Shown here piece after piece: positions 14,069 through 64,000 of a stretch of DNA of 64,000 bases (within the stretch, counting starts at the first letter, position 1; each line of letters begins with the position of its first letter). Below the pieces are notes generated by a model, which had not been told where the DNA came from, searched no databases, and saw nothing but the letters and a program-made list of their open reading frames with translations. The stretch comes from Faecousia sp. (GTDB taxonomy: Bacteria; Bacillota; Clostridia; Oscillospirales; Oscillospiraceae): the NCBI GenBank assembly GCA_045540155.1, contig JAZQGT010000050.1, positions 16,493 to 80,492 of the forward strand. The letters are read 5' to 3'. The position numbers and the translations under genes are program-made.

Positions 14069-14937
14069 CAGTACAGAAAATCCTCCAATCCCAGACCGGC
14101 GCCCAGCTGCTGCAGCTTGTCCATTGCCTGACGTTCAATCTGACGGGCGCGTTCCTTGGTAACGCCCAATCTTTCACCGATGGCCTCCAAGGGGTAGCAA
14201 ACGCCGTCCTCCATGCCAAAGCGTAGCCGCAAAAGCCGCTCCTGCCGCTCCGGCAGCTGCCCCAGCAGGGCATCCATGGTCTGCTTCAGCTCCCGCCGCA
14301 CCAGTTCCTCCTGGGGCTGGGGCGTCTGCAAATCCTCCAACAGCACCTGCAGGGTGCTGTCCTCCCCCTCACCTGCAGGGGCGTCCAGAGAGCATACCTC
14401 CGGTATCAGTGACAGGTACTGCTGCACTTTTTTCACAGAAATACCGCTGTGCGCGGCAAGCTCCTCTATTTCCGGCTCACGTCCAAGGGTTTGCTTCAGC
14501 GCCGTCTTGGCTGCAAGCACCTTCCGGATGCGCTCGGCAGTATGTACCGGAACACGAATCAGCCCCGCGTGATTTAAGATACAACGGCTTACACCCTGCC
14601 GGATCCATTTGGTGGCATAGGTGGAGAACCGGTAATCCAGGGTATAATCAAACTTCTTCGCCGCAATCAGCAGACCGATACTGCCCTCCTGAATCAGGTC
14701 CAGCAGTGGGACACCCCGGCCGGCATATTCCTTGGCCACCGACACCACCAGTCGCAGATTGGCGCTGACCATTACGCGAATCGCCTCCTCGTCGCCGGCA
14801 GCGCACCCCTTGGCCAGTTCCCGTTCCTGATCAGGTGTCAGTCGGGGAATGGTGCGAATCTGCTGCAGATACTGCTGCGCCTCATCCTCTCCGTGGCTGA
14901 CAAAGGAATCTGATTGTTCCAGCAAGGTTACACTCAT
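14068..14937 (-). CDS. RpoD/SigA-family sigma-70 factor lacking region 1.1
   Basis: [54 protein letters not shown]. Confidence 0.88.
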
Positions 14938-16673
14938 GCTTTCGTTCCTTTACTTTCTTTGAACTTATTTCTGATGGCAAGCAGATCATCGTCAGAAGAA
15001 ACTGTCCGGCTCCGCTGCTCCTCCAGAATAATTTTCATACAATCCCGGAAAGCCGTCTCGTTTACAGGACCGGTCTGTTTCTGACAAATGCCTGCCAAAT
15101 GGGACATCTCCTCTGCCCCCATATCCTCCAGCACCGCCAGAGAAACATCCATTCCCCGGTTGTGGCGGTTTTGCAGCTGGGTATACACCCGTCCCAGAAG
15201 GGGCACGGAAAACTGCTCCCCGGTAAGACCTGCGCACAAATCCAGCAGCGCCGGTTCCCGAAGCGCCTGGGCGATGACACCCTCCTCTGCCAGCGCAGAG
15301 CGCATATTATCATAGCGGATGGACCGCTCCTTGGGCTGCAGCGCACGCATAGGTGCCAAATCCACCTTTTCCTGTTGCTTTTTTTCCTTGGCAAGCCGCC
15401 GCTTAAAGGCTTTGTTGACCTCCAGCTTCATGGCATCACTGCTGATACCCGCAGATTCCGCCACACGGCCGCCGTAGACTTCCCGCTTAATGGAACTGTC
15501 CAGTGTGCAAATCAGCTCCGCAGCTTCCTGTACATACTGAATCTTCTGATCGTCAATACCCAAATCGTACTTTCCCCGGATGGCGCTCAGCTGATACTCC
15601 ACACGGTTGGAGCAATCCTCCAGCAGAAGCTTAAACTTATCCGCGCCGAATTTCTGCAGAAATTCATCCGGGTCCTTGGCATCCTTTACCTGCAAAACCC
15701 TGACCTTGATACCCGCATTTTCCAGCATGGGAATGGCCCGTTTAGCCGCCCGCTGGCCGGCCTCATCACCGTCATAGGTGAGAATCACCTCTTCGGTATA
15801 CCTGCTCAGAAGGGTTACCTGATCCTCCGTCAGAGAAGTACCCAAGGATGCCACCGCATTATCAAAGCCGAACTGATGCAGGGTTACCACATCAATGTTG
15901 CCCTCCACCAGAATAATGTTAGGCTGTTTGGTCTTCTTGGCAAAGTTCAGACCGAACAGATTTTTTCTTTTATTAAAAATCAGTGTTTCATTGGAGTTGA
16001 GGTATTTAGGTTCAGACTTGTCCAACACACGGCCGCCAAAGCCTACCACATTCCCCCGCACATCAATGATGGGGAACATCAGTCTGTTGCGGAATCTGTC
16101 ATAAATACGGCCGTTTTTCTCGCCCACCAAATCCGCCGCCCGCAGTTCCTCATCCGTATATCCCTTTTTGCGCATGGCGTCCACCAGCGCATTCCAGGAA
16201 TCCGGCGCATAACCCATGCCAAACTGCGTCACCGAACTCTTGGTAAGGCCCCGTTTGCTGATATAGGCGCGGCATTCCGCGCCCTCCGGGGCATAGAGCT
16301 TTTCGTTGAAAAACCGTCCGGCTTCCTTCATCAGCGCCCAAAGACGTTCCTGCTGGCGGTACCGGCTCTGATACTGCTCATCCTCCGGCACTTCCATGCC
16401 CACCCGCTTTGCCAATGCACGGACAGAATCCGGGTAACTCAACCCCTCCAGCTCCATCATAAAATTGACTACGCCGCCACCCTTGTGACAGCCAAAGCAA
16501 TAATAAATCCCCTTATCGGGCGCAACAGAAAAAGAGGCAGTTTTCTCCCCGTGGAAAGGGCAAAGTCCGAACAGATTGGCACCGGAGCGTTTCAGGCTCA
16601 CATACTGGCCAACCACTTCCTCAATGGGATTGCGGGCCACCAATTCGTCAATAAAAGATGCCGGAAATGCCAT
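14934..16673 (-). CDS. dnaG: DNA primase
   Basis: [11 protein letters not shown] Zn finger, [35 protein letters not shown]. Confidence 0.97.
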
Positions 16674-50713: not shown

Positions 50714-50749
50714 AAAAAGAGCCGATTCTTGTGAATCGGCTCTTTTTTT
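50714..50749 (+). terminator. Intrinsic terminator after metF
   Basis: AAAAAGAGCCGATTC-TTGT-GAATCGGCTC-TTTTTTT. Confidence 0.8.
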
Positions 50750-50804
50750 CTCGAAAAATGTCGAAAAAATACCCCTTGTGTACGCTTGCTATCAATGCCA
50801 TAAT
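50749..50804 (+). promoter_or_regulatory. Tandem Spo0A boxes upstream of an extended -10 sigma-A-type promoter
   Basis: TCTCGAA 50749-50755 and perfect TGTCGAA 50759-50765 (10-bp period); TTGTGT 50776-50781, N17, TGnCATAAT ending at 50804. Confidence 0.55.
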
Positions 50805-50846: not shown

Positions 50847-51542
50847 ATGCACAAGCTGTTGATAGCAGACCCTTCCGAACCCTTTACCGACGGTGTAAAA
50901 GAGATTTTTGAAAACGAATTTGACCTGCAGGTATGCCACGACGGAGAATCCGCGCTGGAGGCGCTTATTTCCTTCCGCCCGGATGTGCTGGTGCTGAATC
51001 TGATGCTCCCCTATAAGGACGGTCTCACTGTTTTGCAGGAGAGCGCCCACCGTCCCCGGGTGATTCTTGCCATCTGCCCTTATATCAACGCCTACATTGA
51101 GCAGGTTTCCGCAGACTTAGGCGTGCAGTACATTATGATTATGCCCACAGTGAACGCCCTGCGTGTCCGGCTGACGGATATGATCGCCTCTTGTATCGCG
51201 GCAAAAGAGGATCTGTCCGCCCAGATAGCGGTGCACCTGCACACCCTGCGCTTCCCTACCCATCTGGACGGCTACCGGCAGCTGTGCGTGGGCATTCCTC
51301 TGTTTGCCCAAAATCCCGGTATGCGCCTGTCCAAGGAACTGTACCCGGCTATAGCAAAGCAGTTCGGCCTGCCCGATGCCCGGACAGTGGAGCATTCCAT
51401 CCGCAAGGCTATCCATGCTGCCTGGGCAAAAAGGGATCCGGTTGTCTGGACCAAATACTTCCCGCCGAAACCGGACGGCGCTATCCCCTGCCCCACCAAC
51501 AAAGAATTCATTTCCCACCTGGCGGAAATGCTGACCCAATAA
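50847..51542 (+). CDS. Spo0A paralogue with a degenerate (pseudo-)receiver domain
   Basis: Receiver-like KLLIAD...PDVLVLNLMLPYKDG; Spo0A_C motifs PTHLDGY, KELYPAIAK, VEHSIRKAI, PTNKEFI; RBS GGAGG. Confidence 0.85.
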   Translation: MHKLLIADPSEPFTDGVKEIFENEFDLQVCHDGESALEALISFRPDVLVLNLMLPYKDGLTVLQESAHRPRVILAICPYINAYIEQVSADLGVQYIMIMPTVNALRVRLTDMIASCIAAKEDLSAQIAVHLHTLRFPTHLDGYRQLCVGIPLFAQNPGMRLSKELYPAIAKQFGLPDARTVEHSIRKAIHAAWAKRDPVVWTKYFPPKPDGAIPCPTNKEFISHLAEMLTQ

Positions 51543-51548
51543 AAATCA

Positions 51549-51572
51549 CCCCCGGCTCTTACGAGCCGGGGG
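51549..51572. terminator. Shared terminator between the Spo0A paralogue and the phage lysis genes
   Basis: CCCCCGGCTC-TTAC-GAGCCGGGGG. Confidence 0.7.
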
Positions 51573-51577
51573 CTTTC

Positions 51578-51772
51578 TTACTGTCCGGCCGCGCCGGACC
51601 GCTCATGCTGCGTGCCAAAATAAAAGGACACCACCATAGATACAATGATCATTACGTTATCCGGCTGAATTGATCCTTTCAAAGCCAGCACCGAAAACAC
51701 CGTAACCACCGCAAAGGTTACAATGGTCTTCACCTTCAAAAGCTCCGCAACCTTTTGCGCAATTCCATTCAT
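51578..51772 (-). CDS. Small two-TM holin-like protein
   Basis: VKTIVT...VVSFYFG; last gene of the lysis cassette. Confidence 0.65.
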   Translation of the reverse strand: MNGIAQKVAELLKVKTIVTFAVVTVFSVLALKGSIQPDNVMIIVSMVVSFYFGTQHERSGAAGQ

Positions 51773-51777
51773 TTGCC

Positions 51778-52032
51778 CTACGCGCCCCTTTCCAAATCTG
51801 TCAGTCTGTGATTGATTACCTTAATCTGCTCTTCTACCACCGGCATCCGCCGGGCAAATCCGTTATGCTCCCGTACCTCCCGGGTCAGCTCGTCAATTTT
51901 GGTATCTGTAACCGCTTGGGAGACCTTCATGGCATTTTCATTCTTCTTTGCGGTTGCCATGCAGGTGACCACCACCCCTGCCAGGGAAAGGCATCCGGTA
52001 ATCAGCGCCGCCAATACGGCTTCGCCCATCAA
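51778..52032 (-). CDS. Phage membrane protein (N-terminal TM + coiled coil), holin-like
   Basis: Hydrophobic N-terminus; IDELTREVREHNGFARRMPVVEEQIKVINHRLTDLE. Confidence 0.65.
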   Translation of the reverse strand: MMGEAVLAALITGCLSLAGVVVTCMATAKKNENAMKVSQAVTDTKIDELTREVREHNGFARRMPVVEEQIKVINHRLTDLERGA

Positions 52033-52035
52033 TGA

Positions 52036-52869
52036 TCACCCCATTCCCAGCAGCCTTTTCCAGGTCTTGTTCTTGGCGGTAATCTCACCGTCAACGGTGC
52101 ACGCATTATCCAGCTGGAAGTGTGCAACAGCAGCTGTAAACTTACTGCCGGCGACACCGTCTGCTTTGCCGACCTCCGTGTAGCCCAAGGCATACAAACG
52201 CTTCTGCACCGCCTGCACAGCCCCGTGGGTACGGTTTCTATGCGCAGACAGGGTCACGGTCTTGGACAGTGTTTCCGGGCCGGCTATGCCGTCCACGGCG
52301 CCGCCGCAGGCCTGCTGCACATCCTTAATGAACTGCACAAGGGAATACCCTGCCGTCTTCTTTTCCAAGCCAAGGAACTCCGCTGCCGCCTTTGCGTAGG
52401 CGATGCCCAGGGCTTTCAGCTCTGCGTCGTCGTTCCAGTCCTGAATATCCTTGAGGTTGTCTACGAAAGCGCCCTCGTTCAGAACTGCCGGCATAGCGGT
52501 GTATTTCAGCACGTGCAGGTCGGTGCGGATCTTCACGCCCCGGCTGTTCTGCCCGATAGCCTTGACATACTTTTCGAAGATTCTGCCAAGTTCTACCCGC
52601 TTCTGATTATACACCAGCGCCTCGTAGCCATCACCGCCACCGGCATTGAAATGGTTGGATACAAACAGGTCAGCGCCCCAACTGTTAGCATCGTTGCAGA
52701 CCGCCGTTAAGCTGTCATTCGAGTAAACGCGGGTTTCGCACACGAAATTTTCCAGCAGATAGTCATTCATCTGCTGGGAAACCGCAATATTCAGCTTGCG
52801 TTCCGTCTCAAAGCCCACTGCACCGGGGTCCCGGTCAGAATGGCCGGGATTGATATAGATTTTCTTCAT
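52036..52869 (-). CDS. Endolysin: N-acetylmuramoyl-L-alanine amidase (Amidase_3) with peptidoglycan-binding domains
   Basis: INPGH, E, SNHFNA, VLNEGAFVDN; C-terminal VDGIAGPET, ADGVAGSKF and VDGEITA PG-binding repeats. Confidence 0.9.
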   Translation of the reverse strand: MKKIYINPGHSDRDPGAVGFETERKLNIAVSQQMNDYLLENFVCETRVYSNDSLTAVCNDANSWGADLFVSNHFNAGGGDGYEALVYNQKRVELGRIFEKYVKAIGQNSRGVKIRTDLHVLKYTAMPAVLNEGAFVDNLKDIQDWNDDAELKALGIAYAKAAAEFLGLEKKTAGYSLVQFIKDVQQACGGAVDGIAGPETLSKTVTLSAHRNRTHGAVQAVQKRLYALGYTEVGKADGVAGSKFTAAVAHFQLDNACTVDGEITAKNKTWKRLLGMG

Positions 52870-52890
52870 TTCGTCCATCTCCTCTTTTCC

Positions 52891-53919
52891 TTACCCCTGC
52901 ATATAGGCATTATTTCCTGGGGCAATTTTGAAATAACCGTAGGATGTAGCCTTGCTCTCGTTATAGTTTTCAAACACATCGCTGCTCTGTCCACCAAAAG
53001 CAGTGTAATCACCGCTGTACAGGGACAGGTCCGGAGCTACGCTCAGTGCCCCCACAGGAGAAGCTGCCACCACACTGCCACCCTTTATAACAATTTGTTC
53101 GGCAATAATACCCTTGCCGTTGGTGGGATGCCACCAAACAGTCTTGGAGATGAGGGTACCGCCCTCCACAACCAATGTCTTGACCTTCGTGGCCTGATAC
53201 CCCACATCAACCTGAACCGTACCGCTTTTTATGGTGATATTCTCCTTTCCGCAGCCAAGGCCGTCATTGCCGTTAATGCGTAAAGAACCGGTGCCACCGA
53301 TAACAATATCACAGCCGTTGGCGGACAAAGGCGCAGAACCCGTAAGGGTATTTTCCCCTACCAGCGTAACCTGTACCGGAACTGTGTTGCCGGGCAGGCC
53401 AATGCGACCGGGATAGCCGGTAATTTCCGTGACATTTGCATCACGTAAAATGACAACGGGAACGCCGCTATCGTTTAACATCACCTTTACGTTCCAGTTA
53501 TCGGGAAGCTGCCCGCCGCTGTACTGCGTCCCCCTGCCGTTCTCATCAACAACAATGCCCTTTACCGGCGTACTGGGGCTCACATCCAGGTAGAATTTCA
53601 CTCCACCCACCGAAACTGTCATAAAGAACGCCTCTACAATGCTCTTAATCTGCTCCGACAATTCCTCCAGTCGTTCCACCGGGGACACACCGCAGGTAAG
53701 CAAGGCCGTATTACAGTCTTTCAGGATTCCCGCATTGTAGCTTTCCATTTCAGAAATGCCGGCGGCATACCCTGCGGTTTCACCAACAGCATAACCCTTG
53801 CCGTAACCCGTGCTTTCACCTGCAGCATATCCCACATCATATCCGCCATCGGCGACCGTAACATCAAATTCCGGCTGGAAAGACCGGTCTGTTTTTGAGA
53901 ATTTTACGTCAAATCTCAT
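52891..53919 (-). CDS. Putative receptor-binding/accessory tail protein with GY repeats and a beta-helix-like C-terminus
   Basis: GYDVGYAAGESTGYGKGYAVGETAGYAAG repeat; ITIKSGTV/LVVEGGTL/IVIKGGSV repeats; ATGA overlap with the upstream gene. Confidence 0.55.
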   Translation of the reverse strand: MRFDVKFSKTDRSFQPEFDVTVADGGYDVGYAAGESTGYGKGYAVGETAGYAAGISEMESYNAGILKDCNTALLTCGVSPVERLEELSEQIKSIVEAFFMTVSVGGVKFYLDVSPSTPVKGIVVDENGRGTQYSGGQLPDNWNVKVMLNDSGVPVVILRDANVTEITGYPGRIGLPGNTVPVQVTLVGENTLTGSAPLSANGCDIVIGGTGSLRINGNDGLGCGKENITIKSGTVQVDVGYQATKVKTLVVEGGTLISKTVWWHPTNGKGIIAEQIVIKGGSVVAASPVGALSVAPDLSLYSGDYTAFGGQSSDVFENYNESKATSYGYFKIAPGNNAYMQG

Positions 53920-54218
53920 ACCAGACACCCGTCCTTCAGAATCCTGTCTACCGTGGCAACCATAATATTGGATGCCATTCTGGCATCCCCGCAGCCCACC
54001 CGCAGCTGAATTTCCACATTTCCCTTATCCGCATCAAACCGCAGCGTCTCTTCCTCCGTGAGCGTAACGCGGAGAGCGTTTTCCTCCACTGCGCAGTCAG
54101 CCAGTGTTTTCTCCAGAACAACCTGTTGCTGCTGGGCAAAGCACACATTCAGCGCGGTAATCTGTCTGCCGTCAAAGGGCAGCGTAAAGTTAAATGTCGG
54201 TGTCGTACCTCTGAACAT
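53916..54218 (-). CDS. Phage baseplate-associated small protein (BppU N-terminal-like)
   Basis: MFRGTTPTFNFTLP...LTEEETL...VEIQLRV...ILKDG; position after the fibre gene. Confidence 0.6.
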   Translation of the reverse strand: MFRGTTPTFNFTLPFDGRQITALNVCFAQQQQVVLEKTLADCAVEENALRVTLTEEETLRFDADKGNVEIQLRVGCGDARMASNIMVATVDRILKDGCLV

Positions 54219-54244
54219 TTATTGCTCCTCCTGTTCTAATTGAT

Positions 54245-56044
54245 CTACGATTCCCATTGCAAACCTCCCTGCTTCCATCTGCCGATAATATGGATATTAA
54301 CAGCAGTTGACCACTGCACCTCGCCAGATTCCAGGATATCGTCAGTGGGGTGCACAGTAAGGTGTAAATACGGGGAGTAATTGCTATTCGCTACATACAA
54401 ATCCTTAAACCGCATAGGGCATGGACATTGGTAGCAAGTTGCATTTATGAACGCATCGTCGTCAATAAATGCAAAGGGCAGGCTGATATCCACAGTTTTA
54501 TATACGCTGAAGGTAGGTCCTATCGCTACCGCAGTCCAGCACTCTGCCATGCCGCTTTCCCACTTGCGGTATATCCATCCACTGATTTTGCCCTGCTCCA
54601 CCGGAAAATCCACGGGATAATTGTTGATTTTCAGTGTGCCGTTGATATTGAAGTCATGTTCACCCCAATCAAATATAGGTGTCGCTCTTGCCGTATATTC
54701 TTCGGAAAGAACCGTTTCCAGACTATCTGCCGCTCTTGTCTGGAAGGTGTAGGCAGATTGGTAATTCAAGCCTGTCAATGCGCTCTCTGCCGTATAATGA
54801 CCCGTCCCGGGCACAGGCGTCATTGTGTGCCACTCTTCTTCTGTATCCAGCCAAGCCTCACCGCTCACCTTATACCGATATTGAACAGTCAATGTATTGG
54901 AGGCTTTGCCAAAGGAGCCTTTATAATAATTGCCGCTTGCACGGACAGTCATGTTGCCGTCTGTATCCGGCTGCGTATGCGCCAAATCACAGGTCAGCCG
55001 GATATACGGCACAAGCTTCCCCTGGGCAGCCTTGTCCACCGTGACACTGGCGCTATTGCCTCTGCTGTCCGTTGCGGTGAACACCAGCATGCCGCTGTCT
55101 ACGTTAGCAAACACACCGGAGGCGGCCGCAATGTGCCTGCCCCCGCAAACCGCTTTCTGGCTAACCAGCGAAGCGCCCTTGATTGCTTCTGCTCCAGTGG
55201 AAAAAGACGCGCTGCTGTGGTAACGCACCAAAACGCTGCTGTCTCCCGTCAATGCCACAGTTGCGCTGTTGCTGTCCTGTACCGCCGGAGAAAGCGCAGG
55301 GTCTGCATTGACCACAGAAAACACCGCCGGCAAATACTGGCCGTCCTGCAAACCGCCCACATTGCTCCAAAGATGGACAAATACCGTCATACTCTTCCTG
55401 TCGGGCATGGCATTTCTTAAAGTATTGCGTTCCGCCTCTGACAGGGAGAACGTGTAGGTTGTTGCAGTTTTTGAAAGCTCCCGATAGGGAACATAAACAA
55501 CCGTCTTCGTTTCGTCCAGAACTGCCGCCTGCAAACTGTCTGCCACCGTTCCGGCAGGGTTGCTGTAGGTAATGGTGGGATTCCCCTCATCGGTGAAATT
55601 GGACACCGTCAGCAGAGAGGCCCTTCTGGGAATCCCCGTAAGGGGCCAGGTTCCGGACAGCGTCATCGCCGGCGGGCCGTAGCTGGTCCAGTTCTGCACA
55701 TTGGGGACGGACACGCTATAGGGCATGTCCAGCGTTCCGTCGCTGTTGTGGGCAACCGTAACCTGCCCGGCGGCAATGGTCTGGGTTGTGTGATTAGCGG
55801 TAAGATTAAAATTAAAGTGATTGATGGCTATGCTCTGACCGCCCACAGAGATCCCCCAGCTGTAATCGTCAGAGGAAAACCGATTGTTGTCCGTGTTGCT
55901 GATGGTGAACAAATAGGAAACCAGCGACGAATTATCCGCAACACTGATACTTTCCTCGGTGAGCGTCAGGGTAATCACATAGCCGTTTGACCATGATTTC
56001 CACCCGTAATCACCTGTTGAAAACACTTTTGTCTGCAGCGCCAT
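54245..56044 (-). CDS. Siphophage minor tail / fibre protein (DUF859-like with a gp53-like C-terminus)
   Basis: VAHNSDGT, TGIPRRAS, ATDSRG, YTFQTRAAD; C-terminal GWIYRKWESGMAECW...IIGRWK. Confidence 0.7.
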   Translation of the reverse strand: MALQTKVFSTGDYGWKSWSNGYVITLTLTEESISVADNSSLVSYLFTISNTDNNRFSSDDYSWGISVGGQSIAINHFNFNLTANHTTQTIAAGQVTVAHNSDGTLDMPYSVSVPNVQNWTSYGPPAMTLSGTWPLTGIPRRASLLTVSNFTDEGNPTITYSNPAGTVADSLQAAVLDETKTVVYVPYRELSKTATTYTFSLSEAERNTLRNAMPDRKSMTVFVHLWSNVGGLQDGQYLPAVFSVVNADPALSPAVQDSNSATVALTGDSSVLVRYHSSASFSTGAEAIKGASLVSQKAVCGGRHIAAASGVFANVDSGMLVFTATDSRGNSASVTVDKAAQGKLVPYIRLTCDLAHTQPDTDGNMTVRASGNYYKGSFGKASNTLTVQYRYKVSGEAWLDTEEEWHTMTPVPGTGHYTAESALTGLNYQSAYTFQTRAADSLETVLSEEYTARATPIFDWGEHDFNINGTLKINNYPVDFPVEQGKISGWIYRKWESGMAECWTAVAIGPTFSVYKTVDISLPFAFIDDDAFINATCYQCPCPMRFKDLYVANSNYSPYLHLTVHPTDDILESGEVQWSTAVNIHIIGRWKQGGLQWES

Positions 56045-56045
56045 G

Positions 56046-57554
56046 TTAACCTCCTATCCAGAAACAGGCTGTTCTGTCGTTATCCAAGCTTTCAAACCGA
56101 CTTCTGCCGCCCACAATCAGATAGGTAGACGCGTGTAAATCCACTGCGTCCACCCCCTTGCTGTTGGCGGTGAGAACAGCGCCCCCATTTTTATAGACCG
56201 TCATGCCGTCCTCGGTAATCTGTGTTTTAATCTCTCTTCCCTGCTTCTGTACCGTCATGCCGGTTTCGTCAAAGGTATAGCCGGCAGCGGTACTGACCTT
56301 GGCCACGCCGTCATCCACAATGCTCTGCACCTGCACGGTAAGACCGGACGCGCTCTGCTCCACTACGGACATTCTGTCTGTAACCTCATGGAGTCCCGTT
56401 TGCTGACCTGCCACCTTTACCTGCAATCCGTCCACGGTAGTCTCCAGGGCAGTCATTTTTCCGTCCGCTTCCCGATTTTCAAGCTTCAGGCCTTCCACAC
56501 CCATCTGCAGCTCCAAAACCTTTCCGCTTAAGGTTTTGAACCCGGTATGATTGGCAGCGGTTGTGCTGTCCCGGCGGGCGCTGCCCGTGCATACCAATTC
56601 CGCCCGCTGCCCGGACTGGATCTTGGTCATTACATAGACTGGAAACGTTCTGCCGTTTTTGTCGGCAACCTGTAAAATATCTCCCGCCTCTATTTGGGCT
56701 GCAACCGATATAAAAACACTGCAAGGGGTGTAATCCACCCCTTGCAGTGTTTCGTAAATCACCTGCGCCGCTGCTTGCAAAGCCTCCTCGCTGTCAGAAG
56801 CCAGCAAACAGTTTCCGGTAATCACATATCCGTTGCTGCCGCTGCCATATATGGCGCCCACATCCGACTCCGTCAGCCGAATCTGTACCTTGTCGATGGG
56901 CGCCACCCGGTAGTCTTCAAACCGCAGGGCATAGATATCATACCCGACATCCTGCCCAACGACCACATCCTTGGGCGTGTACCACGCCAATTCCACTTCC
57001 CCGTCCGCAGTTGCCCTGCAAAAACGTCCGCATGCCTCGCCCACCCACTGCATCAGCTGCCTGCCTGTAATATCCCCGGCAGAAAACCGTTGCACCGGCC
57101 AGTCGCCGTTGGGAAGCACTTCATTGCGCAGTGTCAGATTGCAGGCAGCGCAGACCATCTTTGCAAAGTCATGCAAGGTATACGGCCACCCGTCCAGACT
57201 CTCCAGCCACTGGGACAGATTTCTGTCCAGCCAGCTCACCCGGTCATAGGCGGTAATTTTGCACATATTGGCGCTGGGACGGACAGGCTCCTCGGCGGTA
57301 AACAGCCCCACCTTGGTCCTGACGCCGTCCTCATCCACCTTGTAGAGGGTCAGCTCCATGCCGGCGGGGATGGAAAGTCTGCCCGCCGGCGTCAGAATGG
57401 TGGCCTCCAGCATATTGGCGCAGGCAGACCCCAGCGTCAGCTCCCTGCCGGCGTTCACCTGTTGGGTGATGGTCACGCTCTGCAGCGCATTGGCAGTACC
57501 TGCCCCGGAAAAAATTTCAGTTCCGTCGGGCAGGATCATTAAATTCTTCAGCAC
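56046..57554 (-). CDS. Phage tail (Tal/hub-like) protein
   Basis: Position after Dit; ELTLGSAC, ITAYDRV, C-terminal coiled coil. Confidence 0.65.
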   Translation of the reverse strand: MLKNLMILPDGTEIFSGAGTANALQSVTITQQVNAGRELTLGSACANMLEATILTPAGRLSIPAGMELTLYKVDEDGVRTKVGLFTAEEPVRPSANMCKITAYDRVSWLDRNLSQWLESLDGWPYTLHDFAKMVCAACNLTLRNEVLPNGDWPVQRFSAGDITGRQLMQWVGEACGRFCRATADGEVELAWYTPKDVVVGQDVGYDIYALRFEDYRVAPIDKVQIRLTESDVGAIYGSGSNGYVITGNCLLASDSEEALQAAAQVIYETLQGVDYTPCSVFISVAAQIEAGDILQVADKNGRTFPVYVMTKIQSGQRAELVCTGSARRDSTTAANHTGFKTLSGKVLELQMGVEGLKLENREADGKMTALETTVDGLQVKVAGQQTGLHEVTDRMSVVEQSASGLTVQVQSIVDDGVAKVSTAAGYTFDETGMTVQKQGREIKTQITEDGMTVYKNGGAVLTANSKGVDAVDLHASTYLIVGGRSRFESLDNDRTACFWIGG

Positions 57555-57565
57555 CGCGCCACCCC

Positions 57566-57940
57566 CTAACATTCAATAATGCTGAATTGGTAATTCCGGA
57601 GTTGTCCCCCGGGGGCGCTGTGCCACAGGATTCCGTGCTTGCTGCGATATGCGGTGGTCACCGTCATTTTGCTCAAATCCGTGTAATCGGGGTAGCTGAA
57701 TTGGAAATGGCTCTTCCCCGCAAACAGGCTCTCCATGTAGGAATACTCCTCCCCGGAGAGATACGCATAGGAAAAGCTCCACTTTCCAACATCCCGCCGC
57801 ACCACAATCCGATGCATGAATGCGCTCTCGTCTCTGCCGGAATCAGACGCGTCAATATCCTCCCGGGAGACCTCCACATCCGCATCCGGCGCCAGCATAG
57901 GCTTGCCGTCAATCAAAAATAACTCCGTCAGCTTTCTCAT
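57566..57940 (-). CDS. Distal tail (Dit-like) protein
   Basis: DIDASDSGRDESAFMHRIVVR, FSIIEC; follows the tape measure gene. Confidence 0.65.
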   Translation of the reverse strand: MRKLTELFLIDGKPMLAPDADVEVSREDIDASDSGRDESAFMHRIVVRRDVGKWSFSYAYLSGEEYSYMESLFAGKSHFQFSYPDYTDLSKMTVTTAYRSKHGILWHSAPGGQLRNYQFSIIEC

Positions 57941-60711
57941 GCCAATCCTCCGTTCACCACAGCCATTTTCCGCTGATACCGGGACATGGCATTGCCAATC
58001 ACATCGTCACCAATCTGAATTCCCAGCACCGCCTGCAAAATCTCCCGCTGCACCTCTACGGACGCAGTGAATCCTGCCATCATAGCCGACGTATTATCCT
58101 GCATCACCAACGCCACCGCCTCCTGAATGGTAGCTAGGGGCGCTTCAATGTTGGTACCGTGTCGCTGGTCGCCCACCATAGCCAAGAAAGGTTTGTTGGG
58201 GGGCAGGACGGCGCCCTTGGCCAGATACGGGATTTGGGGTACACTGATAGTATTCAGTCCGGAGAATGGTGTCAGTCCCAGAATATTAATATCCTTGATT
58301 TTTTGCAGTGCAGTATTGATTCCATTGAAAGGAATGCTGATTGCACCGTTTAATCCCTTGATAATACCATTTACAACGGTCTTAAAGACTGTTAATATGC
58401 CGTCTTTGATGTCAGTAAAAATATCACCGGCGATAGAGAAAACTGCCACAACACTTTCCCATGCCTCCGAGAACACTTCCTCGAAGAAAGATGCGACTTT
58501 ACCAAATATCTCTTTTACAGCCTCCCACGCCTGCGATGCCGCTTCGGTGAATCCGTTCCACAATCCAGAGAAGAACTCTGCAACAGGCTGGACAACATTT
58601 TCGTTGAACCAACCTGAAACGATACCCCAAACTACTTTGATGATCTCCCAACAGCCAGAGGCCAGGACACCGATGTTGTAAAATACATTCGAAAAAGTTT
58701 GACCGATGCTCACAAACAATTTGGAGAACCATTCAATAGCCGGAGAGAAGAATTCCACAATGGCATTCCAGCAAGCGGAAGCAGCTGTGGAAATACCCTC
58801 CCACGCATGCGAGGCAAATGTAGAAATATCTTTCCATGCACTGGCTGCCCAAGCAGAAATGTTGGCCCATAGTTCTGAGAAAAATGCACTTATCTCATCC
58901 CAGTATATGATGATCGCCGCTACAGCCGCAGCGACGGCCGCAATAATCGCCACTAACCAACCGACGCTAATTCCGAGAGCCGCAGCGATTGCAGCCAAGC
59001 CACCCGTAATTGCAGGAACAAGTGTCCCCGTTATCCACGCGCCAAGAGAGGCTATTGCTCCGCTTAACTTAGGAAACATCGCCGCTAACAATCCCACTTC
59101 CGGTGCCATAGCGCCAACGGCACCAATGTATTCCGCAATTTTCGCCGCAATAGAAAGTGCTCCAAATGCTCCACCAATACTTCCAATAAGGGTTATAAAA
59201 TTATTAATACCTTCTTGATTATTACTAACCCAATCAGAAATCCTAGTTAGCGCATCTGCAAAACCGTTGATGGTATCAATAATCACGCCACCTGTCCACT
59301 GAGCCAACGGTTTCAAGAACTCATCCCACAGCCATTGACCCATTGGCTTTAATCCTTCAATTGCTACATTGAGAAAATCCAGGGCCGCACTCAGCAAATC
59401 AAGAAATGCCGGTAAAACATCTTCAATCGTCCACTCAGCTATCGGCACTAGGATGTTGTACCAAGCCCATTCCAAACCCTCAAACAGTTTGGTGGTTAGC
59501 GGTGCGATTGCCTCTTTTAGTCGCCCGAACTCCTCCACTGCGGGTGCAAAATCGATTTGTTTCAGCGGTTCAATCAGTTCTTTGAACTTGTCCACAATAG
59601 CTTGTAGCTTTGGCGAAAAGGTATCCTCCACCTCTGTCGTGACCACGATGTTGGTGCCACTGGACACGCTGCCACCAGATGTTCCAGAAGGAGATTCACC
59701 ACTCCCCGTATTGGATTGTAGAATGTTCAGTTCGTCAAAGTTTGCCAGCGACTTCTTAGCCGCCTTTCCTGCCGCCGTGGTGGCCGCCTCCAGTTCCTCC
59801 TCCGCCTCTGCTCCCGCCGATGCTGAAGATGCTACCGAATCATTAGAATTTGCCAGAGTACTAGTCTGTACCGAAGCTTTTCCAAAGAGAGCCCCAACCA
59901 CAGATGCAACCGCATTAGCAAATTTCGTTACAGATGTAATTGCAGTATTTATGATTGGCAGAAGCGTCTGAATAATGGGATTGATTGCGTTGCCGACCGC
60001 CACCTTCAGGTCGTTGAATCGGAAGGACAACTGCTGAAGTTGCCCCGACAGAGTGCCTGCCACAGTTGCGGCATCACCAGTCTGATATTTGGTTTCCTTC
60101 AGAATCCCGCTGACTTCCGCCTGGATCTTCTGCTGCTGTGTCAGGTTGTTGGCCGTGGTACCGATGGATGCAGCATATTCATCCCACATCTTGGCAATAT
60201 TCTTTGTGACACCCGCATTGTCGACCAGAATGCTATTTTCGTTCTTCAGGCCCTCAGTTGCAGACTCAACAGCTTCACCCATGGTGTAGCTTGCCTGTCG
60301 TCCATAAGCCGAAGCATCTTTTAGGGCAGTCATTACCTGTTTAATTTGTCCGTCGTCATAGCCTCGGGATGCCAGATTCTTATAGGCGTTGATGGCATTT
60401 GTTGCGGGAATCAAGCCATCTTCCACATACTCTTCAATAAAGTCCTGAGCATCTGAAAAACTGCGTCCCTGACCCGCCAAGATGCTTTTCAAACCAGTCA
60501 GCGCATCGGACATTGTCCGTGCAGCCTGTGAGGATTCAGTGGCAAACTCGATGATTTTCTTAGTGGAAAAAGCTGCAGCCAGCATTACGGCAATGTTTTT
60601 TAGTGTGTTCCCAAGACCGCCTAACTGTCCAGAAATTGTTTTAATTCCTTTTTCAAATCCACTGTTATCCAACTCTGTGGAAATAACAACTTTTCCGTCA
60701 CTTGCCAACAT
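57937..60711 (-). CDS. Tail tape measure protein
   Basis: 924 aa, Ala-rich helical with 11-residue Trp/Phe periodic repeats; IPYLAKGAV...EAPL C-terminus. Confidence 0.9.
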   Translation of the reverse strand: MLASDGKVVISTELDNSGFEKGIKTISGQLGGLGNTLKNIAVMLAAAFSTKKIIEFATESSQAARTMSDALTGLKSILAGQGRSFSDAQDFIEEYVEDGLIPATNAINAYKNLASRGYDDGQIKQVMTALKDASAYGRQASYTMGEAVESATEGLKNENSILVDNAGVTKNIAKMWDEYAASIGTTANNLTQQQKIQAEVSGILKETKYQTGDAATVAGTLSGQLQQLSFRFNDLKVAVGNAINPIIQTLLPIINTAITSVTKFANAVASVVGALFGKASVQTSTLANSNDSVASSASAGAEAEEELEAATTAAGKAAKKSLANFDELNILQSNTGSGESPSGTSGGSVSSGTNIVVTTEVEDTFSPKLQAIVDKFKELIEPLKQIDFAPAVEEFGRLKEAIAPLTTKLFEGLEWAWYNILVPIAEWTIEDVLPAFLDLLSAALDFLNVAIEGLKPMGQWLWDEFLKPLAQWTGGVIIDTINGFADALTRISDWVSNNQEGINNFITLIGSIGGAFGALSIAAKIAEYIGAVGAMAPEVGLLAAMFPKLSGAIASLGAWITGTLVPAITGGLAAIAAALGISVGWLVAIIAAVAAAVAAIIIYWDEISAFFSELWANISAWAASAWKDISTFASHAWEGISTAASACWNAIVEFFSPAIEWFSKLFVSIGQTFSNVFYNIGVLASGCWEIIKVVWGIVSGWFNENVVQPVAEFFSGLWNGFTEAASQAWEAVKEIFGKVASFFEEVFSEAWESVVAVFSIAGDIFTDIKDGILTVFKTVVNGIIKGLNGAISIPFNGINTALQKIKDINILGLTPFSGLNTISVPQIPYLAKGAVLPPNKPFLAMVGDQRHGTNIEAPLATIQEAVALVMQDNTSAMMAGFTASVEVQREILQAVLGIQIGDDVIGNAMSRYQRKMAVVNGGLA

Positions 60712-60737
60712 CTCACCTCCTAAAAATAGGTATAGAA

Positions 60738-60764
60738 AAACCCCACCATTTTCACGGTAGGGTT
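60738..60764 (-). terminator. Probable terminator of the moron gene
   Basis: AAACCC.ACC...GGT.GGGTTT imperfect hairpin with a T-run on the minus strand. Confidence 0.5.
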
Positions 60765-60781
60765 TATGTATAAAATTGTAA

Positions 60782-61324
60782 TTATTTCTTACCAGGTTTC
60801 CATTGATAACCGCACTTCAAGCAGGTACAGATGATCTTTTTGGAACCAATTCCGCCGGCGATCAGGCCAACATCCAGCCCAACAGCAGCACCGATAGCAC
60901 CACGGGCAAAACCAAATCCTTTTTGATTTGCGGATATGCTTGTGGATAAACACTTGGGACAGTAGACTTGTCCGGATTTTTCCATATCTGCGATTTTAGC
61001 TTTGCGTTCATCCTTTTTCTTGCTGGGATACCAGATCGGTTCCGTATCAAATGTTCTAGAAGATGTAGATTTTGTTTCCTCGCCAAATAATTCATCAATT
61101 GTTTGCTTTGCCTCCAGCAATCCCATCCCTGTATCTTGCCGAAGTATCCGAATTGCTTCCAAGCGATTCGGCATATACTGCCCATATCGACGAATCATCT
61201 CAGGTCTCTCATCAGATGCACTGTTAGCAGCTGACACAGCGGCAACCGTTTCTTTCAGCCTCGTTCCACAACTAGAGCAGAAATTTGCATCTCCACAATC
61301 TTTTCCACAATTAGGGCAAAACAT
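60782..61324 (-). CDS. Moron: zinc-ribbon / L7-L12-CTD-like / glycine-rich TM protein
   Basis: FCPNCG...FCSSCG; EAIRILRQDTGMGLLEAKQTID; CPKC-GAIGAAVG..GLIAGGIG-CLKCG; low GC. Confidence 0.75.
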   Translation of the reverse strand: MFCPNCGKDCGDANFCSSCGTRLKETVAAVSAANSASDERPEMIRRYGQYMPNRLEAIRILRQDTGMGLLEAKQTIDELFGEETKSTSSRTFDTEPIWYPSKKKDERKAKIADMEKSGQVYCPKCLSTSISANQKGFGFARGAIGAAVGLDVGLIAGGIGSKKIICTCLKCGYQWKPGKK

Positions 61325-61347
61325 AGCGATCACACTCCTTTGCCCTT

Positions 61348-61376
61348 ATTATAAGCAAGCACAAATCAAAAAGCAA
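61348..61376 (-). promoter_or_regulatory. Sigma-A promoter of the moron
   Basis: TTGCTT-N17-TATAAT on the minus strand, followed by an AAGGAG RBS. Confidence 0.75.
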
Positions 61377-61380
61377 GGAA

Positions 61381-61935
61381 TTATTCTCCCAGCAGCTTCT
61401 TGAGCCGCTCCTGTTCTGCAATTTCTTCGGCAGAATATCGTTTTTTCAGATCTACCTTATCTTTGTTCTTGCGGTAGAATTCCTGTTCCCACTTTTCCAG
61501 CTTCTTGCCCTTACGGAGCTTCTCCCGGATGGAAACCAATGTGGAAAGCTGACCTTCGCCAATGGCGTTGAAATAGGACACGAAAGTCCACCAATGCAGA
61601 AAAGGTAAGGCTCGAATTTCTGTTCCTGCCACCTTGTTCACATCAGCAACGATTACCTGTGCATCCTGTTCCCAGTCCATCAGCTTTGGGGCAGGTTTGG
61701 CATCTTGGTCATCGCAGGAGATAAACTCCACCAAATATTCGATGGCTTCTTGAAGATGCTGTTGAGGAATTTCACCCTCATAAAACAATGCCAGCGCAAC
61801 CTTCCAGCGGACATACTCCGGCTGATCTGGATCATCCAGATACCGGAAGATTTCCAGAATGTCCCGGTAGTCTGCATTGATTGGGTATTCGACACCGCCG
61901 ATCTTGGCGGAAGTCGGCAGATTCCAAAGGTTCAT
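61381..61935 (-). CDS. Gp15-family phage protein (tail assembly)
   Basis: LPTS..I.G.EYPINADYR, DWEQDA, LHWWTF, LVSIR. Confidence 0.8.
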   Translation of the reverse strand: MNLWNLPTSAKIGGVEYPINADYRDILEIFRYLDDPDQPEYVRWKVALALFYEGEIPQQHLQEAIEYLVEFISCDDQDAKPAPKLMDWEQDAQVIVADVNKVAGTEIRALPFLHWWTFVSYFNAIGEGQLSTLVSIREKLRKGKKLEKWEQEFYRKNKDKVDLKKRYSAEEIAEQERLKKLLGE

Positions 61936-62396
61936 TACTGTGTCCTGCGCTGAGCACGGTTCAGCTTTGCTTCCGCAACAGCCTTGTCCGCCTGCTGCTT
62001 GGCGCAGTTCTCCGCGCCCTCTACCATGATAGGCTGCAGCGCAGCCAGGAAATTGGTAATGACCCGCTCGCCGTTGCTTGCCACTGCCAGCAAGTTGACA
62101 CCGCCCAGTAACTTGTCGAAGTCATTGCCCTCGCCGAATACTTCGGTCAGGATCTTCTTGGTCTCCCGGTCGGCCTCTGCCATTATCCGCAGTACCGTAG
62201 CGCCGTTCTGCTCCTGGTTTTCCGCCTTTTCGATTTCCCTCGCCTTGGCAACCAGACCGTCCTCCACGGACTGGATCTTACCCATAGCATCCATGAACCG
62301 GGCATAAACATTAGGGTCACTGGGATTGAAGCGCAGTACGCCGTTGTCGTTGATCTGGTATTCCTTGATACCACTGTCAATAATCAGCTTTTCCAT
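61935..62396 (-). CDS. Tail assembly chaperone
   Basis: LRFNPSDPN; NRAQRR C-terminus; lies between the tail tube and Gp15 genes. Confidence 0.7.
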   Translation of the reverse strand: MEKLIIDSGIKEYQINDNGVLRFNPSDPNVYARFMDAMGKIQSVEDGLVAKAREIEKAENQEQNGATVLRIMAEADRETKKILTEVFGEGNDFDKLLGGVNLLAVASNGERVITNFLAALQPIMVEGAENCAKQQADKAVAEAKLNRAQRRTQ

Positions 62397-62418
62397 ATCA
62401 TTGCCTCCTTAGTGTGGT

Positions 62419-62441
62419 GCCCCGCCTGACACAGGCGGGGC
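62419..62441 (-). terminator. Hairpin after the major tail gene
   Basis: GCCCCGCCTG-ACA-CAGGCGGGGC. Confidence 0.55.
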
Positions 62442-62450
62442 GGTCATTGC

Positions 62451-62930
62451 TCAGTTTGCGGTAAAGGTCTTGGTGCTGGGATTGAAGGTACCAGCAGTCT
62501 TCACGCCGGTGTAGTGCAGGGTGAAGGGGATCTGATAGCCGGTAGTATCGCCACCGTAGCCGGTGACCTCGATATAGGCCTCCTCCTTAATGGCGGGATA
62601 AGCGCTGTCTTCAGCAGCCTCCCACAGCTTGACCTCCACCACGTCGGTCTTCAGGTCATCCAGCACCAGATTGCCATCGATGATGGCCTGCAGGCGGGTG
62701 AACAGAGCAGATTCCTTCTCAGCGTAGAAAGGCTCGACAGAGCCGGTCTTCTCATAGCTGGAGATCAGAATACTGGTTTCACCCAGGATGTTCTTCTTGG
62801 TGTCCACCTGGGCCGCCAGCTCGGGACTGAACTCCTCCAGGTCCTTACCCAGCCGCTCATAGGCAGCCGCATCCCCATTGGCAGCGGTGTTGATAAAGTG
62901 CGCCAGATACTTTCTTTCGATTTTTGCCAT
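62451..62930 (-). CDS. Major tail (tube) protein
   Basis: MAKIERKYLAHFI, RLGKDLEE, KNILGE, GYGGDTTGYQIPF, GTFNPSTKTFT. Confidence 0.8.
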   Translation of the reverse strand: MAKIERKYLAHFINTAANGDAAAYERLGKDLEEFSPELAAQVDTKKNILGETSILISSYEKTGSVEPFYAEKESALFTRLQAIIDGNLVLDDLKTDVVEVKLWEAAEDSAYPAIKEEAYIEVTGYGGDTTGYQIPFTLHYTGVKTAGTFNPSTKTFTAN

Positions 62931-62932
62931 AT

Positions 62933-63358
62933 TTATTTCACCTCATAAACTTTTATAAAATCCGCAATCAGCGTAACCGTGTATGTGCCTGTGCCCACCC
63001 GGGAAACCTCCTTCAAAGCGCCCCCGTGGGCCTGCATCCGCTCCCGGGACGGCACATCCCCAAAATGGGGGGTAAGCCCGGCAGCGCTCTGCTGCTGCAC
63101 CCAGTTCTGAAAGTCCAGCAGCCATTGGGCATTGTCCGTACCGTCACACTGCCCTGCCGCATGCCGATAGAGCGCAAACCGATACCTGCAGCTTACCTGC
63201 AGATTCCCCAGCACATCCTCCTGCCTGCCCGTCTCTTCCAGACCGGCGGGAAACAGACCGGCGTGCCCCGGTCCGTCTTCCGAGAAATCCACCGACAATG
63301 TGTCCCCCCAGCCGGGGTAGGTCTGCAGCCACCGCCGCAGCGTTTCCAAATCCGTCAT
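62933..63358 (-). CDS. Tail terminator / neck protein
   Basis: Size and position directly upstream of the tail tube gene. Confidence 0.6.
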   Translation of the reverse strand: MTDLETLRRWLQTYPGWGDTLSVDFSEDGPGHAGLFPAGLEETGRQEDVLGNLQVSCRYRFALYRHAAGQCDGTDNAQWLLDFQNWVQQQSAAGLTPHFGDVPSRERMQAHGGALKEVSRVGTGTYTVTLIADFIKVYEVK

Positions 63359-63367
63359 AAATGCACC

Positions 63368-63721
63368 CTACTTTCTTCCGGCTTCCGTGTGGCAAAACTG
63401 ACCCTGCCAGCGGTATGCCGTTGCATAGGCAGCCTCTCCCAGCCCGGGCACCAGCGCAGGCACAAAGGTATTCCACATTTCCTCCGTTACCTTAGGTCCG
63501 ACTCCGTCAAAAACCCGGTCGCCGGGAAATACCAGCTGCTCCGCGCCGGGCTGTACCAGCAGAAAATTCCGTTCCTTCCGCTTTCCCAGCGTCTCAAAGG
63601 ATACCGCGTCCTCCCACTGTAAAAAGCAGCCTCCCAGCACCTGCCGATGGATTCCCTCCGGGGTCTTTCTGTAAACCGTCACCGTCTGACAGCACATACC
63701 GTAATCCACAGGCACGGTCAT
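63368..63721 (-). CDS. Head closure (stopper)-like protein
   Basis: TVTVYRK, PGDRVF, HTEAG; neck-module position. Confidence 0.55.
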   Translation of the reverse strand: MTVPVDYGMCCQTVTVYRKTPEGIHRQVLGGCFLQWEDAVSFETLGKRKERNFLLVQPGAEQLVFPGDRVFDGVGPKVTEEMWNTFVPALVPGLGEAAYATAYRWQGQFCHTEAGRK

Positions 63722-64000
63722 CCGCCCACCCCCCGGTAAATATCCAGATAAATGCAGGCTCTCTCATATAACGTCTGCCCCAAAGAAGGCCTGTCCGTCT
63801 CATACCGCACCGCTACGCTGCCCACACTGGCAGATGCAACACCTTTGTTCCTGTTTTCCCAAATAGCCTCTGCCATGGCGCACACAGCCATGTTTTCCGC
63901 CTCCGCGCCGGAGGACTCTACCCGGTAGACATTCTTTAACCTGTCAAGATACCGCTGCGCCTGGGCAGCCACACCGGCAAACGCCTTTTCCGGGATGGCG
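63718..64000 (-). CDS. Head-tail connector (adaptor) protein, 5'-truncated by the window edge
   Basis: Frame open to the edge; MAVCAMAE, SASVGSVAVRY, YLDIYRGVG. Confidence 0.65.
   Translation of the reverse strand, partial: AIPEKAFAGVAAQAQRYLDRLKNVYRVESSGAEAENMAVCAMAEAIWENRNKGVASASVGSVAVRYETDRPSLGQTLYERACIYLDIYRGVGG

Follow-up and report, generated by a model that had tools for sequence, protein, structure and literature searches.

Does a phage-like gene cluster that converges on a gene for a Spo0A-like protein represent a particle system domesticated by its host, or a prophage that carries a sporulation gene? This question is raised by a locus of Faecousia sp. (Oscillospiraceae) in a 64,000-nt stretch of DNA (here, the window), which corresponds to positions 16493-80492 of contig C50 of G000, a metagenome-assembled genome (MAG) that consists of 56 contigs and is 81% complete. 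The region under study spans window positions 50847-64000, and C50 extends 1393 bases past the window end. Elsewhere in the window, dnaG is located at 14934-16673. The plus strand has, in order, a DUF5981/MetV-like gene, metF and the Spo0A-like gene; the minus strand, from position 51578 to the window end, carries a run of lysis, tail and neck genes (Table 1). Having established the gene content of the cluster, its boundaries in relatives, its vertical inheritance, purifying selection on its genes and a promoter motif held in common, we conclude that it is probably a Faecousia-specific domesticated particle system of the gene transfer agent (GTA)-like (or PBSX-like) type.

The open reading frames (ORFs) of the window were assigned to families based on Pfam and PHROG matches, and inspection of ORFs and matches revealed that all ORFs in the minus-strand run are intact, with no frameshifts seen. 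The lysis end of the run converges on the Spo0A-like gene over one G+C-rich hairpin with a stem of 10-11 bp, a loop of 4 nt, and T-runs and a terminator score on both strands. No tRNA gene is located at the lysis end, the nearest being at 37.4 and 40.9 kb, and no recombinase gene is present there. An earlier note on this DNA had described an intact neck-tail-lysis run without frameshifts that converges on the Spo0A paralogue over a shared hairpin, with neither integrase nor tRNA at that end, and all of these observations hold. The same note took the run to be a tail/lysis module. Tail and lysis genes are indeed present, but the module does not stop at the neck: just past the window on C50 (locus L001), we found the full head-tail adaptor gene, a gene for a 323-aa major capsid protein with a weak match to SU10_MCP in Pfam, and the C-terminal part of a scaffold gene that is cut at the contig end. 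As far as C50 extends, the adjacent sequence, which the note had proposed to inspect for capsid, portal and terminase genes versus integrase and replication genes, encodes the adaptor, capsid and scaffold. A second contig of the same bin, C18 (5.8 kb), has a DUF218 gene on one strand and terS, terL, portal, scaffold and the start of the capsid gene on the other. C18 is not a plain continuation of C50, as their 1.1-kb overlap has a nucleotide identity of merely 77%; because of this divergence, C18 is a second copy or derives from a co-binned strain.

Complete loci in relatives define the unit. Its gene order is terS, terL, portal, scaffold, capsid, adaptor/neck, tube, chaperones, tape measure, Dit-like/distal tail, endolysin and two holin-like genes; the whole unit spans 10-18 kb, and none of the complete relatives lacks the terminase or portal genes. 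On a 207-kb JGI contig, which we reached via homologues of the Spo0A-like protein, the left flank consists of genes for RACo, DUF3786, an 883-aa protein and DUF218. These are followed by terS, terL, a gene for a 65-aa protein, portal, scaffold, capsid, four neck/tail genes, Gp15, a 354-aa tape measure, proteins of 124, 500 and 553 aa, an M15 lysin, and proteins of 83 and 61 aa, and the right flank consists of Spo0A-like and PFK genes. This unit of ~12.8 kb contains solely structural and lysis genes. In the closest GTDB species (L185; 97% capsid identity), DUF218, the element, a Spo0A-like gene (80%) and metF are arranged in this order on a single contig, and in ten further species, cellular genes directly flank the same ordered gene set. 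On the left side, DUF218 is the conserved neighbour in at least 14 species.

Genes for an integrase, a repressor or replication proteins were not found in any complete unit of the relatives, and no primase or replication gene was present at any copy examined. Whole-genome scans of five element-bearing genomes revealed no tyrosine or serine recombinase beside the element; where the contig of the element encodes any, they are located 16-90 kb off, past host genes. Flanking proteins of 480-511 aa, which by size might have been serine recombinases, match Wzy_C, FGGY kinase, ROK, DHHW, DUF2812 or DUF2779 in Pfam, or no family. Because integrase, repressor and replication genes are lacking, the cluster cannot propagate as a phage. 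In IMG/VR, 59 contigs have a capsid identity of at least 76%, and all of them are at most 21.3 kb. The next group, at ~65% capsid identity, comprises phages of 36-40 kb that have in common with the element only the capsid and, at 34%, terL. A nucleotide search of the whole region against a phage collection gave no match, and an exact-sequence look-up of the Spo0A-like and capsid proteins gave no identical record. We note that positions 4211-4270 of L185, between the portal and scaffold genes, match the Rfam GP20-b RNA motif at 45 bits, which is above the gathering score; GP20-b is known as a cis-regulatory RNA that precedes the scaffold (GP20) genes of phages, and the homologous spacer in G000 would be C18:4299-4369.

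To what extent the element follows its hosts was assessed in 151 sampled Faecousia species/genomes and 134 sampled Oscillospiraceae genera. The capsid gene is present in 43 of the 151 species, and the capsid family in 3 of the 134 genera. Among GTDB representatives, the capsid gene was found in 135 stretches, nearly all of them Faecousia/Oscillospiraceae MAGs of ruminant, chicken and human gut origin. The element is present in each of the six species whose IspH-S1, full length or nearly so, matches that of G000 at 84% identity or more, and its distribution is patchy further out. Using IspH-S1 as the one host marker, we compared a maximum-likelihood marker tree with a quick capsid tree (26 or 24 taxa). 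The two trees have six supported clades in common, i.e., the G000 clade of six species, G047+G095, G002+G151, G072+G104, G161+G155 and G023+G078, and one conflict, G130, the host-tree sister of which, G136, has two element copies. Pairwise capsid and marker distances are correlated (Mantel r 0.43-0.55, p = 1e-4). These comparisons and the conserved DUF218 flank address the tree congruence and synteny with the host that the earlier note had suggested testing.

Substitution rates point in the same direction. Between G000 and G143, the synonymous substitution rate (dS) is 0.62 for capsid, 0.95 for p159 and 1.1 for p84, and 0.71, 0.56 and 1.27 for the adjacent host gene metF, for metV and for the next gene, respectively. 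In seven pairwise comparisons, the ratio of nonsynonymous to synonymous rates (dN/dS) of every element gene is 0.01-0.37 at dS values from 0.2 to >2 and 0.03-0.37 at dS values from 0.6 to >2, and terminase, portal and capsid are among the most constrained genes (0.01-0.1). The cluster has thus passed vertically, and in an intact state, through many rounds of speciation; because it is intact and constrained over such distances though it has neither replication nor integration genes, it is maintained by the host. Two exceptions to intactness were observed: in G095 (L061, C41; 1955-2749), a deletion has joined the first half of Gp15 directly to the final third of tail599, and in G078 (C43:16337-17299), the capsid gene contains an in-frame TGA.

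The most conspicuous variation concerns the tail. The tape measure has 924 aa in G000, ~525 aa in G112 and G143, and 354 aa in the JGI lineage, and only a remnant of it is left in L185. Of 25 informative species in the clade with at least 89% capsid identity, 10 lack the whole set of genes for the tube, p153, Gp15 and the tape measure. These deletions have at least three different boundaries, and the tube block was accordingly lost at least three separate times. In the tube-less lineages, the other genes are full length, with a dN/dS of 0.01-0.3 and a dS similar to that of flanking host genes, and p124, for which a tail-tube/Dit fold is predicted, is kept. These data suggest repeated shifts to a short-tailed particle.

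Upstream of terS, a block of ~55 nt is common to 18 copies from different species. It consists of a direct-repeat motif with the consensus GGTTGGKAAAA-N4-GGGAAGAYTTT and an extended -10 element; copies of the G000 clade additionally have a short leader and a terminator-like hairpin ahead of the ribosome-binding site. The direct repeat, of 11 bp, covers the -35 region, an arrangement typical of response-regulator activators. In 26 copies, the 450 nt upstream of terS contained no canonical 0A box, and the promoter-leader-hairpin module had no Rfam match. In a genus-wide pattern search, the motif was detected in 37 of the 151 genomes, 32 of which carry the element, and a reversed-pattern control gave just scattered single matches. 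G000 has exactly two strong sites: one on C18 upstream of terS, and one at C55:7607-7632 that faces dnaA, ~125 nt upstream of the annotated ORF start and ~170 nt before the Met that starts the DnaA-like sequence. A dnaA-facing copy in the same orientation is present in G017, G095, G047, G139, G112, G143, G068 and G104 (nine species with G000), and five element-free species have the proximal dnaA promoter only. When their 36-nt cores are compared, terS and dnaA copies agree at 0.855 within a genome vs 0.762 across genomes (label-permutation p 0.003), and no dnaA gene lies within 10 kb of any copy of the element examined. The related 36-40 kb phages do not have the motif. On our reading of these sequences, the motif would be a host-type promoter common to the cluster and the replication gene dnaA.

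In other clades, extra motif copies precede a small DUF6291 gene or a hairpin only. At L279, L280, L282, L283 and L284 (G072, G155 and G078), the motif is located before a DUF6291 gene of 77-93 aa, in one case followed by two XRE-like genes, and at L246 a DUF6291 gene is directly upstream of terS. The DUF6291 protein is not a universal regulator, as it is absent from G000 and the G000-clade loci. The region between DUF218 and the terS promoter on C18 (1-45 and 909-1103) contains repeats of ~30-100 nt with 92-100% identity that are also found on C12, C45, C52, C6, C23 and C46 and look like a REP-like intergenic family.

The Spo0A-like protein scores 68 bits against Spo0A_C in Pfam (cut-off 25) and 27 bits against Response_reg, which is below the cut-off; the true, orthologous Spo0A is encoded on contig C23 (154 bits). 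The phospho-acceptor Asp is replaced by Asn, which is kept in at least 90% of 120 orthologues, and the switch Thr and Lys are replaced by Cys and Met. The set of residues of a phosphorylatable receiver (acidic pocket, Asp, Thr and Lys) is therefore incomplete in this protein. The gene has a dN/dS of 0.10-0.15, and paralogues of this type are present in most Faecousia genomes, with or without the element. A Spo0A-like gene adjoins the holin end in G000, L185, G143, G139, G112, G048, L189, L205, L069, L071 and the JGI lineage, and its outer neighbour varies among metF, a nickel-insertion (LarC-like) gene and PFK. In G138, a Wzy gene is at the holin end and the paralogue is elsewhere; in G094, the paralogue is 13.6 kb from the element, and in G068 and G157 it is on other contigs. 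At L203, L204 and L208, the holin gene is followed by metV-metF, the paralogue being missing though the element is kept, and in G144 and on the P0116 contig, the paralogue occurs in the absence of the element. Because it occurs in element-free genomes and is unlinked to, or missing at, the element elsewhere, the Spo0A-like gene is a host gene, and its tie to the cluster is one of position and is confined to a single clade. The protein may or may not regulate the cluster. Upstream of its gene, at 50749..50765 (+), two 0A-box-like heptamers, TCTCGAA and TGTCGAA, are 10 bp apart; through these putative boxes, the true Spo0A may regulate its paralogue.

These observations bear on spo0A homologues reported for phages in gut viromes (PMC10294663). 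The likeness is that a Spo0A_C domain is encoded beside phage structural genes on contigs catalogued as viral. However, the published phage homologues consist of the effector domain only, whereas the Faecousia protein is full length with a non-phosphorylatable receiver and belongs to a host paralogue family found in element-free genomes. The IMG/VR 'viral' contigs L069 and L071 extend past the holin gene into the Spo0A-like gene, and L069 on into metF and metV; because host metF and metV are included, these contigs are over-extended prophage calls.

Table 1. Features of the region in window coordinates, with the basis of each assignment
Feature	Position	Strand	Basis
Spo0A-like paralogue, 231 aa, degenerate (pseudo) receiver and Spo0A_C DNA-binding domain	50847..51542	+	
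Bidirectional intrinsic terminator, common to the Spo0A-like and holin-like genes	51548..51573	.	
p64, holin-like small membrane protein	51578..51772	-	phrog_13256; two hydrophobic segments in translation
p84, second small membrane/coiled-coil lysis-associated protein	51778..52032	-	phrog_1863; N-terminal hydrophobic segment
Endolysin, N-acetylmuramoyl-L-alanine amidase and peptidoglycan-binding domain	52036..52878	-	Pfam Amidase_3, PG_binding_1; PHROG endolysin families
p345, variable distal tail/receptor-binding candidate, Cthe_2159-like carbohydrate-binding beta-helix	52891..53928	-	PF14262 near cut-off
p100, conserved small protein	53916..54218	-	phrog_15594; found in several relatives
tail599, distal tail protein	54245..56044	-	phrog_372 tail protein
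tail508, distal tail protein	56046..57572	-	phrog_6616 tail protein, phrog_18190; Tal role inferred from gene order
p124, minimal Dit-like protein, tail-tube fold	57566..57940	-	AlphaFold model, pLDDT 85
Tape measure protein, 924 aa	57937..60711	-	phrog_1535, E 6e-99; AT-richer than host
p183, zinc-ribbon moron-like insert	60782..61333	-	phrog_2546; weak Zn_Ribbon match; in some relatives only
Gp15-family protein, tail assembly chaperone position	61381..61935	-	Pfam Phage_Gp15, 72 bits; phrog_706
p153, second chaperone-position protein	61935..62396	-	phrog_11299; role based on gene order
p159, major tail (tube) protein candidate	62451..62930	-	phrog_3099; role from position before chaperones and tape measure
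p141, tail completion protein	62933..63358	-	phrog_3266 connector/tail completion
p117, neck protein	63368..63721	-	no Pfam/PHROG family match; syntenic in relatives
Head-tail adaptor, cut by window end	63718..64000	-	phrog_541

Conservation differs along the run. At the lysis end, p64 is kept in relatives, p84 has 70-94% identity with a dN/dS of 0.03-0.1, and in the P0005 lineage, an M15 peptidase lysin stands in for the amidase endolysin. The tube candidate p159 has 70-85% identity across the genus, and tail599 is the most divergent gene of the cluster (25-55% identity). In Foldseek searches, the p124 model matched tube, baseplate-hub and Dit chains, including SPP1 Dit and RcGTA virion chains, with TM scores of 0.45-0.5; these model-based matches are consistent with a Dit-like role and are not decisive. 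The C-terminal two-thirds of p345 has 39-54% identity to five tandem host ORFs at C55:31207-37427, and this likeness suggests a possible domain exchange between a receptor-binding tip of the particle and host surface proteins. The G+C content at third codon positions (GC3) is 0.48 for the tape measure, 0.39 for p183, 0.55 for Gp15 and 0.54 for p345, and 0.58-0.72 for the remaining cluster genes; the host mean is 0.62 with a standard deviation of 0.075 (749 long ORFs). The contrast between a low tape measure, p183 and p345 and mostly host-like other genes, which had been noticed by eye, is thus reproduced by computed values. No close donor of the AT-rich tape measure was found, the best matches being at 57% over one third of the protein (one IMG/VR contig) and at 27% (phage collection).

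Which kind of element accounts for these data? The earlier note had left a choice among a GTA-like or tailocin-like host-domesticated particle system and a prophage with a sporulation-manipulating gene. A tailocin is excluded by the capsid and scaffold genes on C50 and by the terminase and portal genes in all complete relatives, so that capsid, scaffold, portal and terminase belong to the unit. Nor do the complete loci have what marks a temperate prophage, i.e., an integrase with att sites, a repressor and replication genes beside the late genes. An ordinary intact prophage, with an early half that was not assembled and the Spo0A-like gene as sporulation-manipulating cargo, might be suspected from the end of the G000 contig inside the element, from phage-borne spo0A homologues in gut viromes (PMC10294663) and from the Spo0A-like gene on L069 and L071. 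We regard this as extremely unlikely, as host genes are directly outside terS and the holin gene in complete relatives, the two IMG/VR contigs include host metF and metV, the published homologues lack a receiver domain that the full-length Faecousia protein has, and the Spo0A-like gene, being genus-wide, also occurs without the element and far from it. A host-domesticated particle system, in contrast, agrees with the lack of lysogeny genes, the co-divergence with the host, the purifying selection and a promoter that is common to a host locus and not to related phages.

A late region that is replicated or mobilised by a co-resident phage or plasmid would explain the different chromosomal sites in different clades, the two or tandem copies in some genomes and contigs, and the occurrence of the same promoter type before the DUF6291 gene in other clades, once beside XRE-like genes. 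Such a helper-dependent element is nevertheless very unlikely: the copies examined are all devoid of recombinase, primase and replication genes, the element tree is in agreement with the host tree, and the parity in dS with the flanks argues against frequent transfer; general synteny is, moreover, also poor in these genomes. If the clusters were instead decaying cryptic prophage remnants without function, the early region would have been lost once in an ancestor and eroded slowly since. The repeated deletion of the tube/tape-measure block, the G095 fusion, the G078 stop codon and the patchy distribution across the genus are in line with decay, but the retained genes are intact and constrained at large dS, tube-less lineages included, the promoter is conserved and co-varies with its second host copy, and neutral remnants would be pseudogenised at such distances. 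We therefore consider functionless remnants quite unlikely. The remaining alternative, which we hold to be unlikely, is a PBSX-like killing or lysis particle that was domesticated and selected for antagonism or programmed lysis (e.g., release of cell contents or spores) and not for DNA delivery. The structural-only content, the conserved holin-endolysin end and the fast-evolving distal tail proteins are in its favour, PBSX is a Gram-positive precedent, and the selection on tube-less variants suggests that tail-mediated injection is dispensable. On the other hand, the strong constraint on terminase, portal and capsid would be unexpected if the packaged DNA were irrelevant, and the tail is non-contractile, as no sheath gene was found among the PHROG matches of the cluster proteins.

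Several points weigh against a GTA-like system. Only ~28% of the sampled Faecousia species, and 5 of 34 high-quality genomes, were found to have the element, which occupies different loci in different clades. Some genomes have two or tandem copies: G012, G136, G001 and G047 have two capsid genes, and on L091 (IMG/VR, 14.7 kb), the lysin-holin end of one element is followed 1.2 kb later by the next terS. The mosaic lysin and distal tail genes and the foreign-looking GC3 of the G000 tape measure imply ongoing recombination with phages. In addition, the left half of the G000 element is unassembled, with C50 stopping in the scaffold gene and C18 being the sole terS-to-capsid segment of the bin. 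Because the capsid relatives belong to phages of 36-40 kb, the heads are possibly larger than the cluster and, unlike those of classical GTAs, may hold more DNA than the cluster length. Finally, particles, DNA packaging and transfer are in this case predictions from gene content.

Particle production, DNA packaging and transfer, and which regulator acts, are what we infer for the proposed GTA-like system. A host-controlled promoter upstream of terS would fire in some cells; the terminase, with a TerS that apparently lacks its N-terminal region, would fill heads with cellular DNA; tails would join the heads; and the holin-endolysin pair would free the particles. TerS has 132 aa and aligns to positions 61-138 only of the 141-position Terminase_2 family of Pfam, the N-terminal region of which contains, in characterised relatives, the DNA-binding domain. 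A more far-reaching version, which we find doubtful when taken as a whole, is that the cluster is an independently domesticated siphovirus-derived GTA with a promoter recruited from, or co-evolving with, the upstream dnaA promoter, particle production being coupled to replication initiation by one factor that would bind a direct-repeat site of the response-regulator type (the adjacent, phosphorylation-independent Spo0A paralogue is a candidate) and several lineages converging on tube-less podovirus-like particles through deletion of the tube/tape-measure block, with all other genes still under selection.

Among known systems, the RcGTA type of Alphaproteobacteria resembles the Faecousia unit in having a head-tail-lysis cluster of ~14-15 kb without replication or integration genes, vertical inheritance and a siphovirus-like particle; RcGTA TerS lacks a DNA-binding domain, as the Faecousia TerS may do. 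The two are unrelated in sequence, with weak matches of p124 to RcGTA tail chains at the level of the fold. RcGTA depends on host regulators, including the response regulator CtrA, and on accessory loci, whereas in Faecousia a promoter motif is what is known so far; and RcGTA heads are too small for their own cluster, whereas the 36-40 kb phage relatives of the Faecousia capsid suggest larger heads. PBSX of Bacillus subtilis is likewise a Gram-positive phage-like element that is unable to propagate and has holin and amidase genes at its end; its packaging of host DNA parallels what is proposed here. PBSX is ~28 kb and has a contractile tail and its own regulators, xre and xpf; in the Faecousia unit, in contrast, a sheath gene was not found and no regulator is encoded inside the unit.

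Within the same order, the comparison is with FpGTA of Faecalibacterium prausnitzii, GTA-like packaging and FpGTA operons having been reported in Oscillospirales (PMC12946183, Nat Commun 2026). FpGTA is likewise a GTA-like structural cluster of a Gram-positive gut anaerobe, with TerS, TerL, portal, scaffold, capsid, distal tail, holin and endolysin genes and without replication or integration genes; its TerS has no obvious DNA-binding domain, and it is near-ubiquitous within its genus (PMC12946183). It differs in consisting of two operons of 10.5 kb and 5.5 kb that are ~125 kb apart, whereas the Faecousia unit is one contiguous cluster, and it appears tail-less or short-tailed, whereas the G000 unit has a tube and a long tape measure. 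By analogy, and compared with the description in PMC12946183 only, the tube-less Faecousia variants recall the podovirus-like gene content of FpGTA. FpGTA particles and the packaging of 8.5 kb have been shown experimentally (PMC12946183), whereas the Faecousia system is described at the level of its genes.

That GTA-like particles move large amounts of gut bacterial DNA was shown very recently, and among Gram-positive gut bacteria, FpGTA alone has so far been pinned to a gene cluster. The Faecousia cluster is a candidate for a genus-wide, sequence-defined GTA-like element in an abundant, mostly uncultured genus of the gut and rumen. For virome catalogues, it holds the caution that a listed 'phage' spo0A homologue is in this case a flanking host gene. 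With its clear boundaries, a defined promoter motif and natural variants that range from a long tail to no tube, the element opens questions of how phages are domesticated, how tail morphology changes afterwards, and how such a system is wired to host regulation, possibly including dnaA.

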